Shown: in pieces, positions 29,974 to 38,114 of the stretch | Layout: each line of letters opens with the position of its first letter | Numbering within the stretch: position 1 is the stretch's first letter | Assembly: GCA_048213135.1 (NCBI GenBank) | Contig: PS015009.1 | Span: 62,001-126,000, forward strand | Length of the DNA stretch: 64,000 nucleotides | From: Reclinomonas americana ATCC 50394 | Lineage: Eukaryota | Direction of reading: 5' to 3' | The notes under the pieces: generated by a model | The model's database searches: none | What the model was told of the DNA's origin: nothing | Seen by the model: the letters and a program-made list of their open reading frames with translations, nothing else | Program-made: the position numbers and the translations under genes

Positions 29974-30660
29974 TTACAGTTCTTCGTTGAGGATGTTGTG
30001 TTTCACCGCGTACATAATAAGCCCGGCTGTGCTTTTGGCGCCCGTCTTTACTTTCAGCTTATCGCGTATGGCTTCCACCGTACGGGGGCTCAGGTCTACC
30101 AGGTCGGCAATCTCCTTGGTGCTTTTTTCTTCGCACATCAGTTTCAGTATAAGCGTTTCCTTTTCGTTGAGGTGCGCTTCCTGCTGCATCAGTTTTTGCG
30201 GTGTTACCACATTGCGTTGCTTCAGGTTGGTGAGCAGGGCTTTGTTGGTAAGCGAGTTGAAATAATATTCCTGTTCGAAGCAGGTCTTGATGGCTTCGTA
30301 AATGATCTCGCTGTCGCTTGTTTTGGTAAGATAGCTGTTGGCGCCCAGTTCCATCAGTTTGGTGATCATACTGTGATCGTCAACCATGGTCAGCATGATC
30401 ACTTTGGCATCGGGGCAAATCTTTTTGATCTCGGGGAGGGTGGTGATGCCATCCATAATCGGCATCTGTATATCCAGCAGGATCACGTCCGGCGGGATCA
30501 TTTTGATCATGTTCAGCAGGTGCATTCCGTTATCGGCTTCCGCCACCACTTTTACATCCTTTTTTGCGCTCAGGGCAGTTTTAACTCCCGCCCGGTATAG
30601 TACATGGTCATCAGCAATAATCACCTTTATCGGTTCTTTCATGTCAGCGTCTGGCATCAT
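29974..30660 (-). CDS. NarL/FixJ-family response regulator (RR1)
   Basis: IADDH, LLDIQMP receiver Asp, LuxR HTH LSPRTVEAIR. Confidence 0.93.
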   Translation of the reverse strand: MMPDADMKEPIKVIIADDHVLYRAGVKTALSAKKDVKVVAEADNGMHLLNMIKMIPPDVILLDIQMPIMDGITTLPEIKKICPDAKVIMLTMVDDHSMITKLMELGANSYLTKTSDSEIIYEAIKTCFEQEYYFNSLTNKALLTNLKQRNVVTPQKLMQQEAHLNEKETLILKLMCEEKSTKEIADLVDLSPRTVEAIRDKLKVKTGAKSTAGLIMYAVKHNILNEEL

Positions 30661-31040: not shown

Positions 31041-33407
31041 TTACTCAATAATCCTCTCTATATGTATCAGCCTGCCCAGGGCATCTATCCCTTCAATGGT
31101 CAGGAGAAGACGGCCGGATATATCATTATTGTAATACTCGATCTTCAGTTTCCGGTTTTCTTTGTCGGCAACCAGGTAGGGGTTCCAGTACAGGGTGGTG
31201 CGGGTGTCGGGCTGGGCGGCTGTCCGTTTATCACTGTAATCCGGGTTGAAGAACTCCTTAGGCAAATCATACCCCCTTACCATGGCCGAGCGCATGCTGC
31301 CGGGAGCGGTGGAAGGTTCGTCGCCCTTTTTTGTATAAATATATATGACACCGTTTCCTGTAGCGAAAGAGGAACCGGCCACAATACCCGGGATGTACTT
31401 TACATAAGCCACCGACGAAAGCTGGATGGTTTCCACCATTTCGCCGGGTATTACGGATTCGTTCAAAAAGACCATCACAGGATCACAGGTATATTTACCG
31501 ATCATAGGACAGGGATACAGCATGCGGCTGCCGTACGCACCCGCATAGCCCAGCCCCGGAAACCTGTTCCTGAGGTAACTGAACAGGTCAGGCATTACTT
31601 CAGCATAGGGATCGTCCAGCACATTCAACTGGTATCCCCTGGCAATACCGCTGAAAGTACCACTGGTATATTTATTCTCCAGCTCCAGGGTCCGTTTCGT
31701 AATGGGGTTCATATACTTACCCTTTACCACCACTTCCCGTATGGTTTGCACATCATTGAATTGGCGATGGCGGTTGTAAAAACTGTCGATATAATATCGT
31801 TGTGATACAGGCCGTTCCCACTGCTGCACTGTTGTTTGCACCAGCGGCGGTAATGATGCCGGTACCTGTACGCCTTCATTTCTTTTTACTTCAAGCAGGT
31901 CGGCAAGCCGTTCATCTTTGGACAGGCGGAAATACACTTTAGCAGAATCATAAAAAACAAGGCCGTTCTTTTCAAAACGTGTTTGCCCGATGGGGTCCAG
32001 TATAAAGAACTGGTTACCCGCCACTTTATCTTTTATGATCATCTTCAGGCTTTCCTTTTTATTAAAGCCATGCTCTCCTTCCTTATAGTCTACTTTCAGT
32101 GAGAGGTAGTTGTCGGCCGCAAGGATCTCCTCCCCTGTCTTTTTTACGGGCAGACTGTAACGCCGCCAGCCATGTGTCATTAATATCAGATCTGCCAGTT
32201 CCTCATTCCTGCCACGCTGCAGTTCTCTGAGTACAGTTTCGGGTAATGCCTTTACCTGTTCGGCAAACCATAGATTTTCCCTGATGGCGGGCTGGCTTTT
32301 ATCCCGGTCATAAAAGTTGATATCCGCAATGGATGCCGACATATTGGCAAAAACGGTATCGGGCATCAATACCTCTATAGTATTCTTTGCCCTTGAAGCG
32401 GTTGTCCGCCCTTCGCCATTTATTGCCGGTATATTTTCTTTCCGTGGTGGTACTAAAATAACCCGTTCCTGCAAGGGGTTCCACTTTTCCCCGAAAAGGG
32501 TAAGTTGTACGATGCCGGCCGGCAATGAATCACGGGGTATACTTCCTACCCAGTCCATACGGTCACCTACCGAGAGGCTGGCCCGGTAGAGTTCTTCATT
32601 GTCCATGCGGGCCATCAGGTGAAGGGTTTTGAAATTATCCGCCCCGGTATTTTTGGTAATGTGATAATACAATCCTGTTTGGTTCAGCTCCGCATGCAAC
32701 GCGATACCGTAAGGCTGCACTTCTGGCAATGGGGTTTTCTGCGGCAGGCCACCCGTTGTTTTCCAGCGTGCGGTATAGCTGGTATGCCCCGGTGTCACCT
32801 GCAACCTGCCCATACCCATGGCAGTGGTGTGAAAGGAATCCGTTACCGATCCTGTCCGGTCATCTTCGAGCACACCGCTTATTTCCGCCGGGGTGCCATT
32901 GGCATACCATGCTTTAAAAGCCAGGTAATTGTTGATGCCCGCGATCCAGTTACCGCCTTCGGGAAAGAATTGCAGGTATACGGTATTGGCCGCCATGCCG
33001 CCGGTATTTGCCGGATCGGCCTGCCCTTTCCGGTAAACAGTCAGTATTTTTTCCCACTGGTTGACGCTGTCGGCCGCCAGTATGTTCCTGGTAAACCCCC
33101 TGAACCTGATCTGCCTGGCGGTAATGGTATCGGCGATAAGGAAATCACCATTGCAGGTACCGCCGGATACGGGATAGGTCTTTTGCTCCAGCAGCCTGCC
33201 TTCCTCATCATAAATGGCCGCGTAAAAATTGGTGCTCAGGGAAGAAAGCGCTCCTCCATTATACAGGTAGGCCTTGAACCAGATGGTTTCGCCGGGAAGG
33301 TAAATGTCTTTATCAAAATGGATATGCAACCGTTCCACCGGTTGCGCAAACGAACCCGTTGCTGAAAGCAGGAGTAAACATAACAGGTAAAGGCCTGGTC
33401 TCATCAT
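31041..33407 (-). CDS. Exported MG2/macroglobulin-like protein with TonB-plug-like C-terminal region
   Basis: Signal peptide, HIHFDKDIYLPGETIWFKAY, FFPEGG, LILMTHGWRR and RTTLYWNP motifs. Start trimmed to MMRPGLY. Confidence 0.75.
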   Translation of the reverse strand: MMRPGLYLLCLLLLSATGSFAQPVERLHIHFDKDIYLPGETIWFKAYLYNGGALSSLSTNFYAAIYDEEGRLLEQKTYPVSGGTCNGDFLIADTITARQIRFRGFTRNILAADSVNQWEKILTVYRKGQADPANTGGMAANTVYLQFFPEGGNWIAGINNYLAFKAWYANGTPAEISGVLEDDRTGSVTDSFHTTAMGMGRLQVTPGHTSYTARWKTTGGLPQKTPLPEVQPYGIALHAELNQTGLYYHITKNTGADNFKTLHLMARMDNEELYRASLSVGDRMDWVGSIPRDSLPAGIVQLTLFGEKWNPLQERVILVPPRKENIPAINGEGRTTASRAKNTIEVLMPDTVFANMSASIADINFYDRDKSQPAIRENLWFAEQVKALPETVLRELQRGRNEELADLILMTHGWRRYSLPVKKTGEEILAADNYLSLKVDYKEGEHGFNKKESLKMIIKDKVAGNQFFILDPIGQTRFEKNGLVFYDSAKVYFRLSKDERLADLLEVKRNEGVQVPASLPPLVQTTVQQWERPVSQRYYIDSFYNRHRQFNDVQTIREVVVKGKYMNPITKRTLELENKYTSGTFSGIARGYQLNVLDDPYAEVMPDLFSYLRNRFPGLGYAGAYGSRMLYPCPMIGKYTCDPVMVFLNESVIPGEMVETIQLSSVAYVKYIPGIVAGSSFATGNGVIYIYTKKGDEPSTAPGSMRSAMVRGYDLPKEFFNPDYSDKRTAAQPDTRTTLYWNPYLVADKENRKLKIEYYNNDISGRLLLTIEGIDALGRLIHIERIIE

Positions 33408-33609
33408 TTTGTACAGGGTTGTCTGTTTATGACAGCAATTATTACCCGGAAGTTGCAGGAACATTGTTTTTAATGATCCGCTTACCCCGGGAATACAAAT
33501 TTCATGAACGTTTCGCAGTAATCTGGAAGAAAAAAAACTTTTGTTCCGGGTATTTTCCGAATATGACCGTGTACCGGTATGGTTTATTGTTGCAGTAAAT
33601 ACGCTGTTT

Positions 33610-34263
33610 ATGAAAAGATACAATATTGTTGTAGCGGATGACCATATTGTTCTCCGCGATGCTTTGTGCAGCCTGGTGAATTCATTCGACGACTTCCGGG
33701 TGTCGGATGCCGCCGGCAACGGCCGGGAACTGATCCGTATTATTGAGATGGGGCCGGTGCCTGATATTATCCTGCTTGACCTGAACATGCCGCAGATGGA
33801 CGGATACGCCGTGGTGGAGTGGCTGCACCGGCACCGACCGCTGGTAAAGGTACTGGTGCTGACGATGTACGATTCGGAGATCGCCATGATTCGCCTGCTG
33901 AAACTGGGCGTAAAGGGTTTCCTGAAAAAGGATGTGCATCCTGCGGAGCTGAAAACCGCCCTGCTCTGTATCGCCGAAAACGGCTGCTACTATTCGCACA
34001 GTACCACCGGGCGGCTGGCAGCCTTCTTCCAGCGGGTGGAAGATATGCAGTTGTCTTTTCACAAAGCCCTGCTCTCGGATGCGGAACTGCGTTTCCTGAG
34101 GCTGGCGAGTACCGAACTTACGTATAAGGAGATTGCCCATGCCATGGGTACCACACCCCGTACCATTGACGGGTACCGGGATGACCTTTTTGAGAAACTG
34201 AATGTAAAAAGCCGCGTGGGTCTGGCTATTTATGCGGTAAAGAACGGGATTTCCACCTTCTGA
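33610..34263 (+). CDS. NarL/FixJ-family response regulator (RR2)
   Basis: VADDH, LLDLNMP, HTH TPRTIDGYRDDL. Start trimmed to MKRYNIV. Confidence 0.92.
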   Translation: MKRYNIVVADDHIVLRDALCSLVNSFDDFRVSDAAGNGRELIRIIEMGPVPDIILLDLNMPQMDGYAVVEWLHRHRPLVKVLVLTMYDSEIAMIRLLKLGVKGFLKKDVHPAELKTALLCIAENGCYYSHSTTGRLAAFFQRVEDMQLSFHKALLSDAELRFLRLASTELTYKEIAHAMGTTPRTIDGYRDDLFEKLNVKSRVGLAIYAVKNGISTF

Positions 34264-34264
34264 C

Positions 34265-34930
34265 CTACTCAATCAGTTTGTTGCGCATCCCGTACATGAT
34301 AAGGCCCCCGATGGTTTTGGCATCCACCTTGGTCTTCATATTCTGGCGAATGGTCTCGATCGTACGCGGACTCAGGAAGATGATCTTGGATATTTCCTCC
34401 GTGGTTTTGTCCTCGGCCAGGAGGCGGAGTATTTTCAGTTCTTTTTCGTTGAAACTCACCGGGGTATTGGTACCATAATGCTGTCGGACATTCTTTTTCT
34501 GCATCAGTTTGCCCATTACCGCCTTGTTTACCAGTTCATTAAAGTAAAAATCATCATTCATGCAGGTGAGTATGGCTTCGTAGATCTCTTCGGGGTCGGT
34601 GGTTTTGGTGAGGTAGGCATTGGCGCCCATTTCCATCATTTTGCTGATCATTTGCTGGTCGTCGTACATGGTAAGGACAATGATCTTGATGTCTTCGTAT
34701 TCTTTCCGGATGAGCTGGATGGCGTTGATCCCGTCTATTTCTGGCATCCGGATGTCCATCAGCAGTACTTCGGGCTTTTTAATGGCGATCTTGTGCATCA
34801 TGTCCTTGCCATCTTCGGCCTCCCACAGCATTTTCAGGTTGTCTTTGTTGGCGAGGGCCATTTTGATGCCATCCCGGAAGATTTTATGGTCATCGGCAAT
34901 GGCGATCTTGATAACGTGGTTATTACTCAT
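34265..34930 (-). CDS. NarL/FixJ-family response regulator (RR3)
   Basis: IADDH, LMDIRMP, HTH LSPRTIETIR. Confidence 0.93.
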   Translation of the reverse strand: MSNNHVIKIAIADDHKIFRDGIKMALANKDNLKMLWEAEDGKDMMHKIAIKKPEVLLMDIRMPEIDGINAIQLIRKEYEDIKIIVLTMYDDQQMISKMMEMGANAYLTKTTDPEEIYEAILTCMNDDFYFNELVNKAVMGKLMQKKNVRQHYGTNTPVSFNEKELKILRLLAEDKTTEEISKIIFLSPRTIETIRQNMKTKVDAKTIGGLIMYGMRNKLIE

Positions 34931-35066
34931 AGCGGTTTGATAATGGGTTAGTATAAAACTGGTTCTAAGTTACAATATTCAACATAAAAACACCCCTAAG
35001 GTTGTTCATATGCTGTGGATTTTTATGGGTCATTCTACAGCAAAAACAAGGCCGGGAAATCACTAC

Positions 35067-35100
35067 GTAAAACTACTAGTTAAAATACTCGTTGTTTTAC
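35067..35100. promoter_or_regulatory. Three tandem GT(A/T)-N4-TAC boxes, 12-bp period
   Basis: GTAAAACTAC (35067), GTTAAAATAC (35079), GTTGTTTTAC (35091). Confidence 0.55.
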
Positions 35101-35191
35101 GTACACACCCCGCATTACTACTCGATCGGGGGTAAATTCGGAAACCCCGAAAAAGGGAGTTTATGCGCTTGTGCAAGCCTGGTATCCTTTC

Positions 35192-35199
35192 TATTTTTG
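35192..35199 (+). promoter_or_regulatory. Sigma-A -7 box for the candidate sRNA
   Basis: TATTTTTG ending 5 nt before the 5' arm of the hairpin. Confidence 0.55.
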
Positions 35200-35203
35200 T
35201 ACC

Positions 35204-35329
35204 AGTTGATTGACATTGGTTCACATAATTAATGTTCTATCCAAAAAAATCCAATAAACCTAAGAGTTTCCAATTATCCAACGAAGAACCTGTTTGTGCT
35301 TGTGTTGCCATTGTCAATCAACTCTTTTT
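35204..35329 (+). ncRNA. Candidate small RNA with paired ends and a UCCAA-repeat loop
   Basis: Perfect 12-bp terminal stem (35204-15 with 35312-23) extended by TGG/CCA and CACA/TGTG, then a T5 tract. TCCAA occurs at 35240, 35250, 35269 and 35277. Confidence 0.6.
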
Positions 35330-35471
35330 GAATTTGCCCGACTTTAAATCCAATATCCCGTACACTGATCAACCGGCACAGGAATAGCCCTGTTCAGCAG
35401 CAGAAATGCCAGCTAACCGACAACCACCCGCGACCGGACTTACCACTTTAGGTAAGAAAAAGACTGGAATA

Positions 35472-35564
35472 GTAGATTTACTAACGTAAACTCACGAGGT
35501 TTATTGATAGTAAATTTACTATTTTTTATTCGTAAAACTACCCAAATATACTACGTTAATCTAC
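35472..35564. promoter_or_regulatory. Array of five GTA-N4-TAC-like boxes
   Basis: Boxes start at 35472, 35486, 35510 (inside the perfect palindrome ATAGTAAATTTACTAT), 35532 and 35555. Confidence 0.6.
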
Positions 35565-35596
35565 GTGCCATTATTTCATAACTACTTGACTGTCTT

Positions 35597-35604
35597 TACT
35601 TTTG
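35597..35604 (+). promoter_or_regulatory. Sigma-A -7 box for the peptide transcript
   Basis: TACTTTTG downstream of the box array. Confidence 0.5.
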
Positions 35605-35708
35605 ACTTTCGGCACCCTTTTTGAATCCATTTTAGCCGGTTGTGAGGCTTAGCGTTTTGAAGGAAGTTTACACCTCAAATTCAAATCGTAAACCACAAAA
35701 GCTAAATC

Positions 35709-35753
35709 ATGGTAATCAACTTTATTGAAGCGCTCGCTGAGTTTTTCTGCTAA
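35709..35753 (+). CDS. Candidate 14-aa small peptide MVINFIEALAEFFC
   Basis: ATG...TAA with an A-rich Bacteroidota-type initiation region (CACAAAAGCTAAATC-ATG, A at -3), directly upstream of the 7-TM/HK/RR genes. Confidence 0.55.
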   Translation: MVINFIEALAEFFC

Positions 35754-35773
35754 TTCTGTCCGGTTATTCTATT

Positions 35774-35804
35774 TTTGATTTTGGTAGATTTATAAGTATT
35801 TTTG
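35774..35804 (+). promoter_or_regulatory. Sigma-A promoter (-33 TTTG, 19-nt spacer, -7 TATTTTTG)
   Basis: Consensus spacing, immediately upstream of the open frame starting at 35815. Confidence 0.6.
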
Positions 35805-35814
35805 AAAAAACTAA

Positions 35815-36531
35815 GTACTTATCCTACAAACTCTTAAATACATAACCTATTTCACAGAGGTATTACCTTTTGTCTTTTATCTAATCTTTCTCCGGAAAGT
35901 TATTTCAAAAGATAGAAAGGTATTTTTTTTATATACACTTGTCATTGCTCTTCTTATACTGGTAGCGTTCACTTTCCGCTACGTTTTTGTCCAGTACGAT
36001 AAATACTTCCTCACGGTACGTATTTACAACTTCGTGGAATACGCCCTCTTATCGTATTTCTTCTCGCTCCAGATCAGGAACAGGATCATCCGTAAGGCAT
36101 TGTGGTTTTCTACCATCCCCTTCGCCCTCTTCTGCCTGTTTGACTTTATACGGTCCTCAGGCCCCGAATTGCCGTTTGGCCCCCTGGCGGTGGAGTATGT
36201 AATGCTGCTGATCTTTATTATTTACTTCTTCTTTGAGGTAATGGACAATACCAAGTCGGAGCCCATATACCAGAAACCGGTATTCTGGATATCGTCTGCT
36301 TTCATATTGAACTTCTCAGGTAATTTCTTCCTGTTCCTGTATTCAAAGAACAGTTACAGCGACAATGAAGTATTCCAGCAGCATTATACTATCATATACG
36401 GAACCATCACTATACTGAAAAATATCTTACTTTGCATTTCGGCCTACCAGTCCGAAGAAATACCTAATACGCCCAATCATTCTATTGACGTAAACCTAGA
36501 TTCCTTTTACCCACATATCAAAAAGCAATAA
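35815..36531 (+). CDS. Polytopic (~7-TM) membrane protein, probable co-sensor of the downstream kinase; start codon uncertain
   Basis: Frame of ORF 36034..36531 stays open back to 35815 and adds hydrophobic helices; seven hydrophobic segments in total. Confidence 0.75.
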   Translation, partial: VLILQTLKYITYFTEVLPFVFYLIFLRKVISKDRKVFFLYTLVIALLILVAFTFRYVFVQYDKYFLTVRIYNFVEYALLSYFFSLQIRNRIIRKALWFSTIPFALFCLFDFIRSSGPELPFGPLAVEYVMLLIFIIYFFFEVMDNTKSEPIYQKPVFWISSAFILNFSGNFFLFLYSKNSYSDNEVFQQHYTIIYGTITILKNILLCISAYQSEEIPNTPNHSIDVNLDSFYPHIKKQ

Positions 36532-36540
36532 CGGCAAAAG

Positions 36541-37365
36541 ATGTTCTTTTTACAAATAACAGAATCCTCTGGAATCACTCCTTTTATGCTGCTGGGTATA
36601 TTGGGAATGCTGACGCTGGCGATGTCCATCGTAGGGTTCGTTATTTTTCACCAGCGAAAGGTGATCCGTTATAATAACCAGCTCAAAAAACTGGAAGAAG
36701 AGAAACAACAGATATTACTGAACGCGTCTATCCGTTTCCAGGAAGAAGAAAGGAACCGTATCGCGGCCGACCTGCATGATGATGCCGGTCCCCTGCTGGC
36801 CACTGCCCGCCTTTACCTTAATGAGAACCTGGTGAACCAGGAAAAAAGCCAGCAACTCCAGAGCATCTACAGCGCCAAACAAATACTCGACGACGCCATC
36901 CTGCTGATCCGCAACATCAGCCACAGCCTGATGCCGCCCACTTTAAAGAACTTCGGGCTGGAGAGTGCCGCCACTGACCTTTTTCAGAAGATCGGCGCCA
37001 GCGGCAGCCTCAACGCCAGCGCCCGTTTCCACGATTATCGTATACGCCTGAAGGTTGAACAGGAACTGCTGGTATTCCGCATCATCCAGGAGCTGGTGAA
37101 CAATATCATCAAACACAGCAATTCGGGATTCATCCATCTTACCCAGAATAACAGCGGCAACAACATGTATTTCCGCATACATCATGATGGTACCGGCATT
37201 GTGCAGGCCGACTTTGAAAAACTCAACCAAAGCACGCTGGGACTGGGTTTGAAGAATATTGCCAGCCGTATCCGCGTACTCAAGGGAAGGATATTTTTCG
37301 AGATCGATCCCAGCCATACCTATTATAAGATCACGCTCGAAATTCCCAGGGAACCCGCCATCTGA
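36541..37365 (+). CDS. Sensor histidine kinase (HisKA_3 type) with a single N-terminal TM
   Basis: EERNRIAADLHDDAG H-box, RNISHSL, QELVNNIIKHS N-box, HDGTG and GLGLKNI motifs. Confidence 0.92.
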   Translation: MFFLQITESSGITPFMLLGILGMLTLAMSIVGFVIFHQRKVIRYNNQLKKLEEEKQQILLNASIRFQEEERNRIAADLHDDAGPLLATARLYLNENLVNQEKSQQLQSIYSAKQILDDAILLIRNISHSLMPPTLKNFGLESAATDLFQKIGASGSLNASARFHDYRIRLKVEQELLVFRIIQELVNNIIKHSNSGFIHLTQNNSGNNMYFRIHHDGTGIVQADFEKLNQSTLGLGLKNIASRIRVLKGRIFFEIDPSHTYYKITLEIPREPAI

Positions 37366-37463: not shown

Positions 37464-38114
37464 ATGAACGAAATAAAAGTCGCCATCGCAGATGATCATA
37501 AAATCTTCAGGAAAGGTGTGATCCTGTCCATGAGGTCCTATACCAATATCAAATTTGTTATGGAGGCCGACAACGGAGATGACCTGCTGGCCAAGATACC
37601 CGAATTTGAACCAGACGTGATCCTGTGCGACCTGAAGATGCCTGTACGTGATGGCATCGATACCACCAAACTCATTACCAAGAATTACCCCGGTATACGC
37701 GTTATCATCCTCACCATGTATGAGGACGAGCGCTTTGTGGGGCACCTGATGGATTGCGGCGCCGCCGGTTACCTCCTCAAAAGTACCGAGCCCGCCGAGA
37801 TCAAAAAAGCGATCATGGACGTGATGCGCACCGGTTTCTACCTCAACCCGTTCGTGAATAAAGTACTCATCAAGAAAAATTACTCCAAGCAGAAATTCAA
37901 CCCCACCCTCACTACGGAAGTAGTACTGAGCGAAAGGGAAAAAGAAGTGCTTACCCTGGTGTGTATGGAGTTTACCGCCGCTGAGATCGCCGCTAAAATG
38001 GACATCAGCGCCCGTACGGTAGAAGCCATCAAAGACAGGCTGATGGAGCGTTTTGGTGTAAAGAACTCGGTGGGACTGGTATTTTACGCGATGAAGAATT
38101 CGCTGATCGATTAA
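37464..38114 (+). CDS. NarL/FixJ-family response regulator (RR4)
   Basis: IADDH, LCDLKMP, HTH ISARTVEAIK. Confidence 0.93.
   Translation: MNEIKVAIADDHKIFRKGVILSMRSYTNIKFVMEADNGDDLLAKIPEFEPDVILCDLKMPVRDGIDTTKLITKNYPGIRVIILTMYEDERFVGHLMDCGAAGYLLKSTEPAEIKKAIMDVMRTGFYLNPFVNKVLIKKNYSKQKFNPTLTTEVVLSEREKEVLTLVCMEFTAAEIAAKMDISARTVEAIKDRLMERFGVKNSVGLVFYAMKNSLID

Follow-up and report, generated by a model that had tools for sequence, protein, structure and literature searches.

A small open reading frame (sORF) of 14 codons is very likely a translated, genuine protein-coding micro-gene, as judged from its evolutionary signature. It is located in a stretch of 64,000 nucleotides filed under Reclinomonas americana ATCC 50394 (assembly GCA_048213135.1, contig PS015009.1, positions 62,001 to 126,000 of the forward strand), which was analyzed as a whole and is called the window; all positions are counted from its first nucleotide. 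The sORF stands directly upstream of genes for a membrane protein with seven predicted transmembrane (TM) helices (7TM), a histidine kinase (HK), and a response regulator (RR). We consider it roughly an even chance (about 0.5) that the peptide acts in trans as the cognate partner, either ligand or modulator, of 7TM, which would serve the kinase as a co-sensor.

Coding signature of the sORF and its family

A first-pass annotation of the window, made from the nucleotide sequence alone, had proposed a 14-residue amphipathic peptide with an A-rich initiation context, ending about 60 nt before the 7TM frame. All of these statements were borne out. The frame (ATG GTA ATC AAC TTT ATT GAA GCG CTC GCT GAG TTT TTC TGC TAA) encodes MVINFIEALAEFFC, and an in-frame TAA two codons upstream leaves its ATG as the sole possible start. 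A is present at positions -3, -11, -12, and -14, and the same pattern is found in 40 relatives. The stop codon is followed after 61 nt by the opening of the 7TM frame (35815) and after 67 nt by the conserved 7TM first codon ATC (35821). As a helix, the peptide has a hydrophobic moment above that of 99.9% of shuffled versions of itself; two acidic residues stand in its middle, and it carries a net charge of -2.

Within the window alone, the sORF does not rise above chance: 687 ATG-initiated ORFs of at least 14 codons exist in the six frames, 218 of 12-20 codons occur in the 64 kb, and 10 of at least 10 codons lie in the 890-nt intergenic stretch holding the sORF. It stands above chance because it is conserved in 42/42 sequences with substitutions of the coding type. 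These sequences were obtained by scanning a collection of species-representative genomes with the 7TM protein. The scan gave 44 loci at 48-58% protein identity, all but one weak match from Chitinophagaceae, Ferruginibacter, or related metagenome-assembled genomes (MAGs) of Bacteroidota. The comparison set consists of 41 loci, all MAG contigs, with the 5' end of the 7TM gene on the contig, plus the window. L040 and L043 (cut) and L044 (unrelated) were left out of the 41, and L003 is a duplicate of L002.

In each of the 42 sequences, an ATG-initiated ORF of 12-20 codons occupies the same place upstream of the 7TM gene, its stop being 53-82 nt (median 68) from the 7TM first codon. Most of these ORFs have 14 codons (31 sequences), the others 12 (2), 13 (1), 15 (3), 17 (2), 19 (2), or 20 (1), and the stop codon is TAA in 41/42. 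The family consensus is M-x-x-G-[IV]-[IL]-[DE]-L-L-[VI]-E-C-F-[ACS], with MLNGIIDLLVECFA, MMSGIIDLLVECFC, and MWSGIVELLVECFS as typical members. The window peptide is the most divergent one (mean identity 0.36 to the others); it retains M1, I6, the acidic residue 7, L9, E11, and F13. Within 330 nt before the 7TM gene, a second recurring small ORF was not found, except for a 5-codon mini-ORF (MVIFD) which most relatives carry inside a hairpin between the sORF and the 7TM gene.

Start (ATG) and stop (TAA) are the same in all 30 distinct 14-codon DNAs, in which entropy averages 0.76/0.52/1.22 at codon positions 1/2/3. The corresponding 14-residue forms all have D or E at position 7 and F at position 13 (30/30 each), and nearly all L9 (29/30), E11 (27/30), and C12 (26/30). 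The codons for these residues vary synonymously: Leu9 is written CTG, TTA, TTG, CTC, or CTA, Glu11 GAG or GAA, and Phe13 TTT or TTC, and TGC and TGT are equally frequent for Cys12. The Nei-Gojobori ratio of nonsynonymous to synonymous differences (pN/pS) is 0.38 in frame as compared to 1.38 and 1.34 in the two other frames. As the check on the peptide, conservation at the codon level ahead of 7TM orthologues had been named beforehand; with such conservation clearly found in 42/42 sequences, the sORF very probably encodes a genuine product linked with the 7TM/kinase module. Furthermore, the frequency of A before the ATG of 40 relatives is 0.82/0.95/1.00/0.95 at -14 to -11 and 0.68 at -3. A-rich positions -14 to -11 and A at -3 are positive initiation determinants in Flavobacterium johnsoniae and a Bacteroidetes signature (Baez et al. 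2019; PMC6847099); the start context of the sORF therefore fits the initiation rules of this phylum.

It is very improbable that the sORF is untranslated and owes its conservation to an overlapping DNA or RNA element (a -33 region, an operator, or a small RNA), with the frame being incidental. The surrounding leader is rich in conserved nucleotide motifs, and the final sORF codons often read TTTG, as does the reported -33 promoter element. However, variation is concentrated at third positions and in the synonymous Leu, Glu, Cys, and Phe codons, the in-frame pN/pS is far from the value of about 1.35 out of frame, start and stop do not vary, and the frame is open in 42/42 sequences. By contrast, the nucleotide-constrained mini-ORF in the hairpin has zero synonymous variation. 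A search of Rfam with window positions 35000-36200 gave no match at E values up to 1.

As helices, the peptides of the family are strongly amphipathic, with 0.0-3.3% of shuffled versions equaling the moment, and most have a net charge of -2. The first-pass annotation had stressed the terminal Cys and had suggested, besides a signal or pheromone precursor, an MgrB-like membrane modulator of the kinase or a type I toxin; the emphasis on the terminal Cys, the transmembrane form of a modulator, and the toxin were not upheld. Most relatives have Cys at position 12 (26/30) and 4/42 peptides have none (L019, L023, L026, and L035), and 14 residues are unable to span a membrane as an MgrB-like modulator would. 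A type I toxin, or a different small membrane peptide that is toxic and neutralized by an antisense RNA, would likewise be hydrophobic and small, but it is extremely improbable here: the peptide is too short to cross a bilayer and negatively charged, and a simple scan detected neither a convergent promoter or terminator nor another antisense feature over the sORF. Toxin loci are typically mobile or multi-copy, whereas the sORF is fixed in every relative at a single core-genome locus, always beside the sensor module.

Co-segregation of peptide and 7TM within a conserved HK/RR core

Identities were compared for 32 loci having all four parts (sORF, 7TM, HK, and RR). Pairwise identity averages 0.58 for 7TM and 0.60 for the peptide as compared to 0.91 for HK and 0.94 for RR. 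Mantel tests revealed a correlation of sORF with 7TM distance (r 0.41, p 1e-4), which persisted in the partial test on HK+RR (r 0.37, p 1e-4); with HK+RR distance, sORF distance was weakly correlated (r 0.28, p 0.03; partial r 0.21, p 0.075). Position 3 of the peptide is occupied by N in 11 loci and by S in 18; the window, L011, and L017 have other residues there and were excluded from the tree test. This residue changes twice on the 7TM tree (shuffle mean 9.1; 0/500 as low) and eight times on the HK+RR tree (shuffle mean 9.0; 160/500 as low). The peptide type tracks the 7TM tree rather than the HK+RR tree.

Synonymous distances (dS) of HK are unsaturated in six locus pairs. Between L011 and L017, dS is 0.12 for HK and 0.014 for RR, and the 7TM genes have a nonsynonymous distance (dN) of 0.32 and saturated dS. 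The opposite pattern is seen between L029 and L038, with dS of 0.13 for 7TM, 0.51 for HK, and 0.60 for RR. In sliding windows, L011 and L017 are 0.38-0.78 identical from the sORF to about HK codon 15 and, past a sharp border, 0.95-1.00 identical over the following 1.5 kb of HK and RR; this break could be due to recombination, strain polymorphism, or mis-binning. The two segments (L011:1-2504 and L017:2881-5380) belong to MAG contigs assigned to different taxa. Comparison of L005 with L029 gave identities of 0.70-0.78 for the sORF and 0.38-0.77 for 7TM, with the hairpin between them at 0.92 and a return to 0.97 at +787.

One group of loci with a uniform core identity of 0.85-0.91 carries two 7TM types. 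L029 and L038 (0.97 identical) have MWSGIVELLVECF.. peptides, and L005, L041, and L018 (0.79-0.87 identical) have MLNGII.. peptides; identity between the two 7TM types is 0.67-0.69. Approximately unbiased (AU) tests rejected clades of the 7TM tree on HK+RR data (p 8e-4 and 2e-5) and the HK+RR core clade L007+L028 on 7TM data (p 6e-23). The first 20 residues of HK are 0.66 identical and the remainder 0.85-1.00, with some whole 20-residue windows being identical; the first 15 codons or so, which encode a short extracytoplasmic tail before the TM helix, vary with the peptide and 7TM. The sORF, 7TM, and the first ~15 codons of HK form a fast-evolving, recombining cassette inside a near-invariant HK/RR core.

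A real trans-acting peptide may also have some other target, being for example membrane-active or metal-binding, with its position and co-variation resulting from linkage and co-regulation. A strongly amphipathic acidic helix would suit such a role, and co-segregation is expected at a separation of 67 nt, contact with 7TM being deduced rather than observed. We consider this improbable, since the position of the sORF is fixed in 42/42 sequences and the core motif occurs once per locus, at the sORF only (36 sequences, the window among them), and at no other place in the six frames of the 64-kb window. Furthermore, the sORF diverges between cassette types while the intervening hairpin stays conserved.

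A conserved hairpin and the start of the 7TM gene

The segment between the sORF and the 7TM gene folds into a hairpin in 41/41 sequences (mean free energy -9.1 kcal/mol, mean z -3.4). RNAalifold predicted nine pairs, four of them with compensatory changes. In the alignment of the hairpin, 95% of cells are paired and 16 are double-change cells, as compared to 4.8 in shuffles (0/500 as high); 8-9 G-U pairs occur at one position, and the wobbles are on the sense strand. The hairpin adjoins or overlaps the ATH first codon of 7TM; in the window, where this codon is ATC, the 3' arm runs into it. In the relatives, it coincides with an A-rich stretch at -15 to -11 of this codon, the frequency of A being 0.93 at -15, 0.85 at -14, and 0.93 at -11. 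The hairpin therefore probably masks the initiation region of 7TM. In most relatives, it also contains stop codons in all three frames.

Two T-rich boxes (R1 and R2) occur in this segment. R1 fits the motif TAHHTTTG in 25/41 sequences, R2 reads TATTTTTG in 40/41, and the 5' arm and loop of the hairpin hold an almost invariant TTATTTTTGA, fitting the same motif, which is the Bacteroidetes -7 promoter consensus (PMC6847099). Strict TAnnTTTG is not enriched upstream of the ORFs in the window (0.33 per kb as compared to 0.28 expected), and R1 and R2 therefore cannot be called promoters on that ground. A run of at least five T follows the hairpin in 23/41 sequences, the window not being among them; the hairpin was also considered as an intrinsic terminator, a reading against which the lack of the U-tract in 18/41 speaks.

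The first conserved codon of the 7TM gene is ATC in 19, ATT in 19, and ATA in 3 of 41 loci, and never ATG. An in-frame stop precedes it by 2-6 codons in nearly all loci, and in 32/41 the stretch between this stop and the end of codon 24 is free of ATG, GTG, and TTG. For codons 1-24, pN/pS is 0.22 as compared to 0.72 and 3.09 in the shifted frames. The first canonical start in the window is GTG at 36034 (region 35812-36033 has none), and its use would delete about three helices. Since the lack of a canonical start is common to nearly all loci and codons 1-24 look coding, the 7TM gene of the window is not a broken gene. This suggests that the family starts at a non-canonical AUH codon behind a putative regulatory hairpin. 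A window-specific pseudogene, a programmed frameshift, stop read-through, and ribosome hopping from the ATG in the hairpin were considered and rejected for a trait shared by nearly all loci. In addition, the relation of this ATG to the 7TM frame differs among loci (same frame with a stop, +1, or -1), and it is replaced by TTG, ATA, or TTA in 13/41.

The main rival of the trans-acting reading, which we consider unlikely, involves the hairpin: the sORF may be a cis-acting leader, the translation of which, or ribosome stalling on it, controls the transcription or translation of the 7TM, kinase, and regulator genes via the hairpin, with the peptide itself being functionless. The sORF is always directly upstream of the 7TM gene on the same strand, the covariation-backed hairpin between them covers an A-rich initiation stretch and is often followed by a T-run, and the odd 7TM start suggests tight translational control. 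Arrest peptides likewise show amino-acid conservation along their entire short length. However, the spacing between the sORF stop and the hairpin differs among loci by about 30 nt, the spacer sequence is unconserved, and RNAalifold on the whole 354-column leader alignment found 0 pairs and no consensus structure, hence no conserved pairing of the sORF with downstream segments. The conserved core of the peptide moves relative to the stop, from forms 2 residues shorter to forms up to 6 longer, which is hard to square with stalling at a fixed site, and the T-run is missing from many sequences. In addition, a peptide directed at the ribosomal tunnel should not diversify alongside 7TM, although hitch-hiking could mimic this. 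With an unfixed peptide end and a spacer of such variable length, a free peptide fits better than a ribosome-positioning leader.

The 7TM protein, the kinase, and neighboring genes

Table 1. Location of the features discussed (positions within the window)
Feature	Positions	Strand	Remarks
Second GerE-type regulator, divergent	34265..34930	-	~780 nt without long ORFs before the sORF
Candidate regulated promoter and 5' untranslated region of the sORF	35638..35708	+	GGTTG, TTTTG, GGAAGTTTACAC, CGTAAACCAC, then A-rich initiation region
sORF	35709..35753	+	14 codons plus TAA, translation MVINFIEALAEFFC
Spacer	35754..35769	+	Unconserved sequence between sORF stop and first T-rich box
R1, TATTTTTG	35770..35777	+	Matches -7 consensus TAHHTTTG; putative function
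Conserved hairpin	35792..35822	+	5' arm 35792-35801, 3' arm 35813-35822
R2, TATTTTTG	35797..35804	+	In 5' arm and loop of the hairpin
7TM gene, seven-helix membrane protein	35821..36531	+	236 aa if started at ATC 35821; frame opens at 35815
HK, histidine kinase	36541..37365	+	One N-terminal TM helix, HisKA_3 and HATPase_c
RR, response regulator	37464..38114	+	Receiver and GerE/LuxR-type DNA-binding domain

A search with the 7TM protein yielded 245 homologues at E values of 1e-3 or better, none with a Pfam domain; the few named ones are all labelled 'hypothetical protein'. The closest relative of the window protein is P0002 with 67% identity. The protein itself matched no Pfam or NCBIfam family, and the ESM Atlas returned solely 'hypothetical' clusters of Bacteroidota. 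A confident AF2 model (pLDDT 86.6, pTM 0.79) consists of seven helices and a disordered tail. Foldseek against PDB produced only generic bundles resembling G protein-coupled receptors (GPCR) or rhodopsin (best E 0.034), with 0 matches at E 1e-3 or better and nothing enzyme-like. Longer homologues with 7TM fused to a kinase were sought and none was found, which is weak evidence. Prediction of a complex of 7TM with kinase residues 1-110 (score 0.10, mark 0.34) was uninformative either way.

HK starts 10 nt past the 7TM stop and has no sensor domain of its own; 7TM would be its sensor partner. For HK and RR, NCBIfam gave only sub-threshold matches to the NarL family. Synteny was examined by tblastn with the window proteins: HK is 77-92%, RR 88-97%, the divergent regulator 91-96%, and 7TM 48-58% identical. 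Among the flanking genes, which comprise this second regulator, a deoxynucleoside-kinase-like gene, and a Trp/Tyr-tRNA-synthetase-like gene, the latter two are 92-98% and 72-80% identical, respectively. HK, RR, and the divergent regulator are unusually conserved, although the synthetase-like neighbor reaches just 72-80%. Further upstream, the minus strand encodes another GerE-type response regulator (29974-30660) and a protein of 948 aa (31041-33887) whose MG2 (macroglobulin-like) domain is weak; in many relatives, a different kinase/regulator pair is found on this side.

Region upstream of the sORF

The first-pass annotation had assigned the sORF its own promoter and operator array. Conserved blocks and palindromes are present upstream, in partial agreement with this claim; as to the promoter, strict matches to the -7 consensus are no indicator of where genes begin in the window. 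Several alignment columns of the block immediately before the sORF are at least 90% conserved (41 sequences), and the block may act as a promoter. The -7-like element of the relatives, TACTTTTA, is without the near-invariant G of TAHHTTTG.

Arrays of GTAAA/TTTAC half-sites (35060-35110 and 35470-35545) are kept across loci between the divergent regulator and the sORF, as is a perfect 14-bp palindrome, TAGTAAATTTACTA, at 35508-35521; both are candidate regulator binding sites. A long-range inverted repeat, 35205-35219 with 35308-35322 (GTTGATTGACA..TGG with CCA..TGTCAATCAAC), is conserved in 36 sequences and encloses about 90 nt with four ATCCAAT-like repeats. RNAalifold gave it an energy of -14.6 for the plus strand as compared to -7.6 for the opposite one; it has no Rfam match and no conserved ORF and may be an RNA of a new kind or a DNA regulatory element. 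A conserved block at 35290-35330 was also read as a Cys-rich peptide in the window, and this candidate was rejected with neither start codon nor frame being conserved. The only terminator-like site found by a simple scan lies about 290 nt upstream of the sORF on the other strand.

Proposed function

We propose that the sORF would yield, from its own A-rich initiation site of the Bacteroidetes type, a 14-residue acidic amphipathic helical peptide, and that this peptide would act in trans on 7TM, either as a ligand (an autocrine or intercellular signal) or as a feedback modulator. The peptide would set the activity of a 7TM-kinase complex, which would then phosphorylate the GerE-type regulator. 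The sORF, 7TM, and the HK tail would thus be a 'specificity cassette' set in a NarL-type pair, at a locus that is syntenic and part of the core genome in Ferruginibacter-like Chitinophagaceae. We infer translation in vivo, the action in trans, the role of 7TM as the partner, the membrane side of their contact, and autoregulation by RR. A cognate partner acting in trans is favored because a variable peptide and sensor combined with a conserved core is the pattern of ComQXP and agr. A kinase without a sensor domain next to a receptor-like seven-helix bundle without an enzyme-like match also counts for 7TM as the partner. Of the two remaining roles suggested in the first-pass annotation, signal and modulator, either may apply, and a modulator may be intracellular or interfacial. 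Both are indirectly supported by the co-segregation of peptide type and fast-evolving 7TM in a near-invariant HK/RR background.

Several points weigh against this proposal. Co-segregation of sORF and 7TM can be plain linkage, as they lie ~67 nt apart in one recombination block, and the Mantel and tree tests cannot tell linkage from functional co-evolution. The groups for the AU tests were picked after the trees had been seen, the L011+L017 pair was not rejected by 7TM data (p 0.34), and the deep split of the 7TM tree is weakly supported (74). L011 is a 2.5-kb contig, for which mis-binning or assembly chimerism at the breakpoint is possible. The absence of Cys from 4/42 peptides means that a Cys-based modification is not essential. 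Neither a signal sequence nor a double-glycine leader nor a basic N-terminus is seen in the peptide, and the syntenic locus has no exporter, peptidase, or modifying enzyme. To our knowledge, all known pheromone precursors and kinase-modulating small proteins are longer than 14 residues. Finally, the predicted outer half of 7TM is somewhat less conserved than the inner half (0.57 as compared to 0.67; loops 0.45 as compared to 0.58), a modest difference with the topology taken from the positive-inside rule alone.

For an exported signal in particular, the missing leader, exporter, peptidase, and modifying enzyme and the outer membrane of the host would be obstacles; the more variable outward parts of 7TM and the cassette-linked extracytoplasmic tail of HK weakly favor it. 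The most far-reaching version appears doubtful: the sORF would be a leaderless 14-residue pheromone of diderm Bacteroidota with a split receptor, composed of a GPCR-like 7TM protein and a HisKA_3 kinase with one TM helix, and the cassette would define pherotypes.

Comparison with known systems

The locus resembles ComQXPA in that HK and RR belong to the same families as ComP (PF07730 and PF02518) and ComA (PF00072 and PF00196), respectively, and in that variability affects ComX and the ComP membrane domain while the ComP kinase core and ComA are conserved (PMC4008528), the same division as between cassette and core here. The host here is a diderm member of Bacteroidota, a group which the census in PMC4008528 mentions 0 times under the name 'Bacteroidetes'. 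In both systems, the peptide gene is directly upstream of a polytopic membrane sensor, which is a separate seven-helix protein here and an N-terminal domain belonging to the kinase itself in ComP. A ComQ-like isoprenyl transferase is missing from the sORF-7TM-HK-RR unit and from the flanking genes scanned. The ComX precursor has 52-73 residues with a Trp near the C-terminus, unlike the peptides of 12-20 residues described here, which have no C-terminal Trp and in a few cases W at position 2.

Similarity to agr is seen in the small Cys-containing peptide gene beside genes for a polytopic membrane protein, a kinase, and a regulator, and in a sharply bordered hypervariable block over peptide and sensor part flanked by a conserved kinase core and regulator. 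Staphylococcal agr comprises AgrD, AgrB, AgrC, and AgrA, with a hypervariable region over the peptide and the sensor part. In contrast to agr, 7TM has no AgrB family match or enzyme-like fold, the kinase and regulator are of the HisKA_3 and GerE rather than the HPK10 and LytTR type, and the peptide is without an N-terminal amphipathic leader or a cleavable C-terminal tail. Furthermore, the thiolactone Cys/Ser of agr is invariant and located five residues from the mature C-terminus, whereas Cys is third from the end or terminal here and is not present in every peptide.

MgrB and PhoQ offer a parallel as a very small unannotated product tied to a sensor kinase and possibly belonging to its own regulon. 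MgrB is, however, a membrane protein of 47 residues (10.1101/438515), whereas the peptide described here is too short to cross a membrane, acidic, and without a TM helix. It also co-varies with the accessory 7TM and not with the near-invariant kinase. Leader peptides of the trpL, ermCL, and tnaC type are similar in size, in position upstream of genes, and in having an intervening hairpin. The sORF differs from attenuator leaders by the lack of a conserved alternative pairing with it, by variable spacing, by a motif shifting relative to the stop, and by the lack of runs of a regulatory codon.

Peptide-based cell-cell signaling and the control of sensor kinases by small proteins are textbook knowledge in Firmicutes and enterobacteria. 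A search of the full-text literature found no description of this peptide or of the 7TM family, and neither peptide signaling nor small-protein control of kinases for Chitinophagaceae or other Bacteroidota.

The locus thus presents a 14-codon gene which is below every annotation cut-off and has unusually clean comparative evidence of translation, an uncharacterized family of seven-helix proteins which would be co-sensors for a sensor-less kinase, and a gene whose apparent start is a conserved AUH codon preceded by a covarying hairpin. A hypervariable, recombining cassette of peptide and sensor in a near-invariant core is a population-genetic signature of specificity diversification. If the peptide serves as a modulator, it would rank with the smallest regulators known for two-component systems. 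If it serves as a signal, quorum sensing by peptides, together with pherotypes as signaling groups that do not communicate with one another, would extend beyond Gram-positive bacteria to a new phylum.

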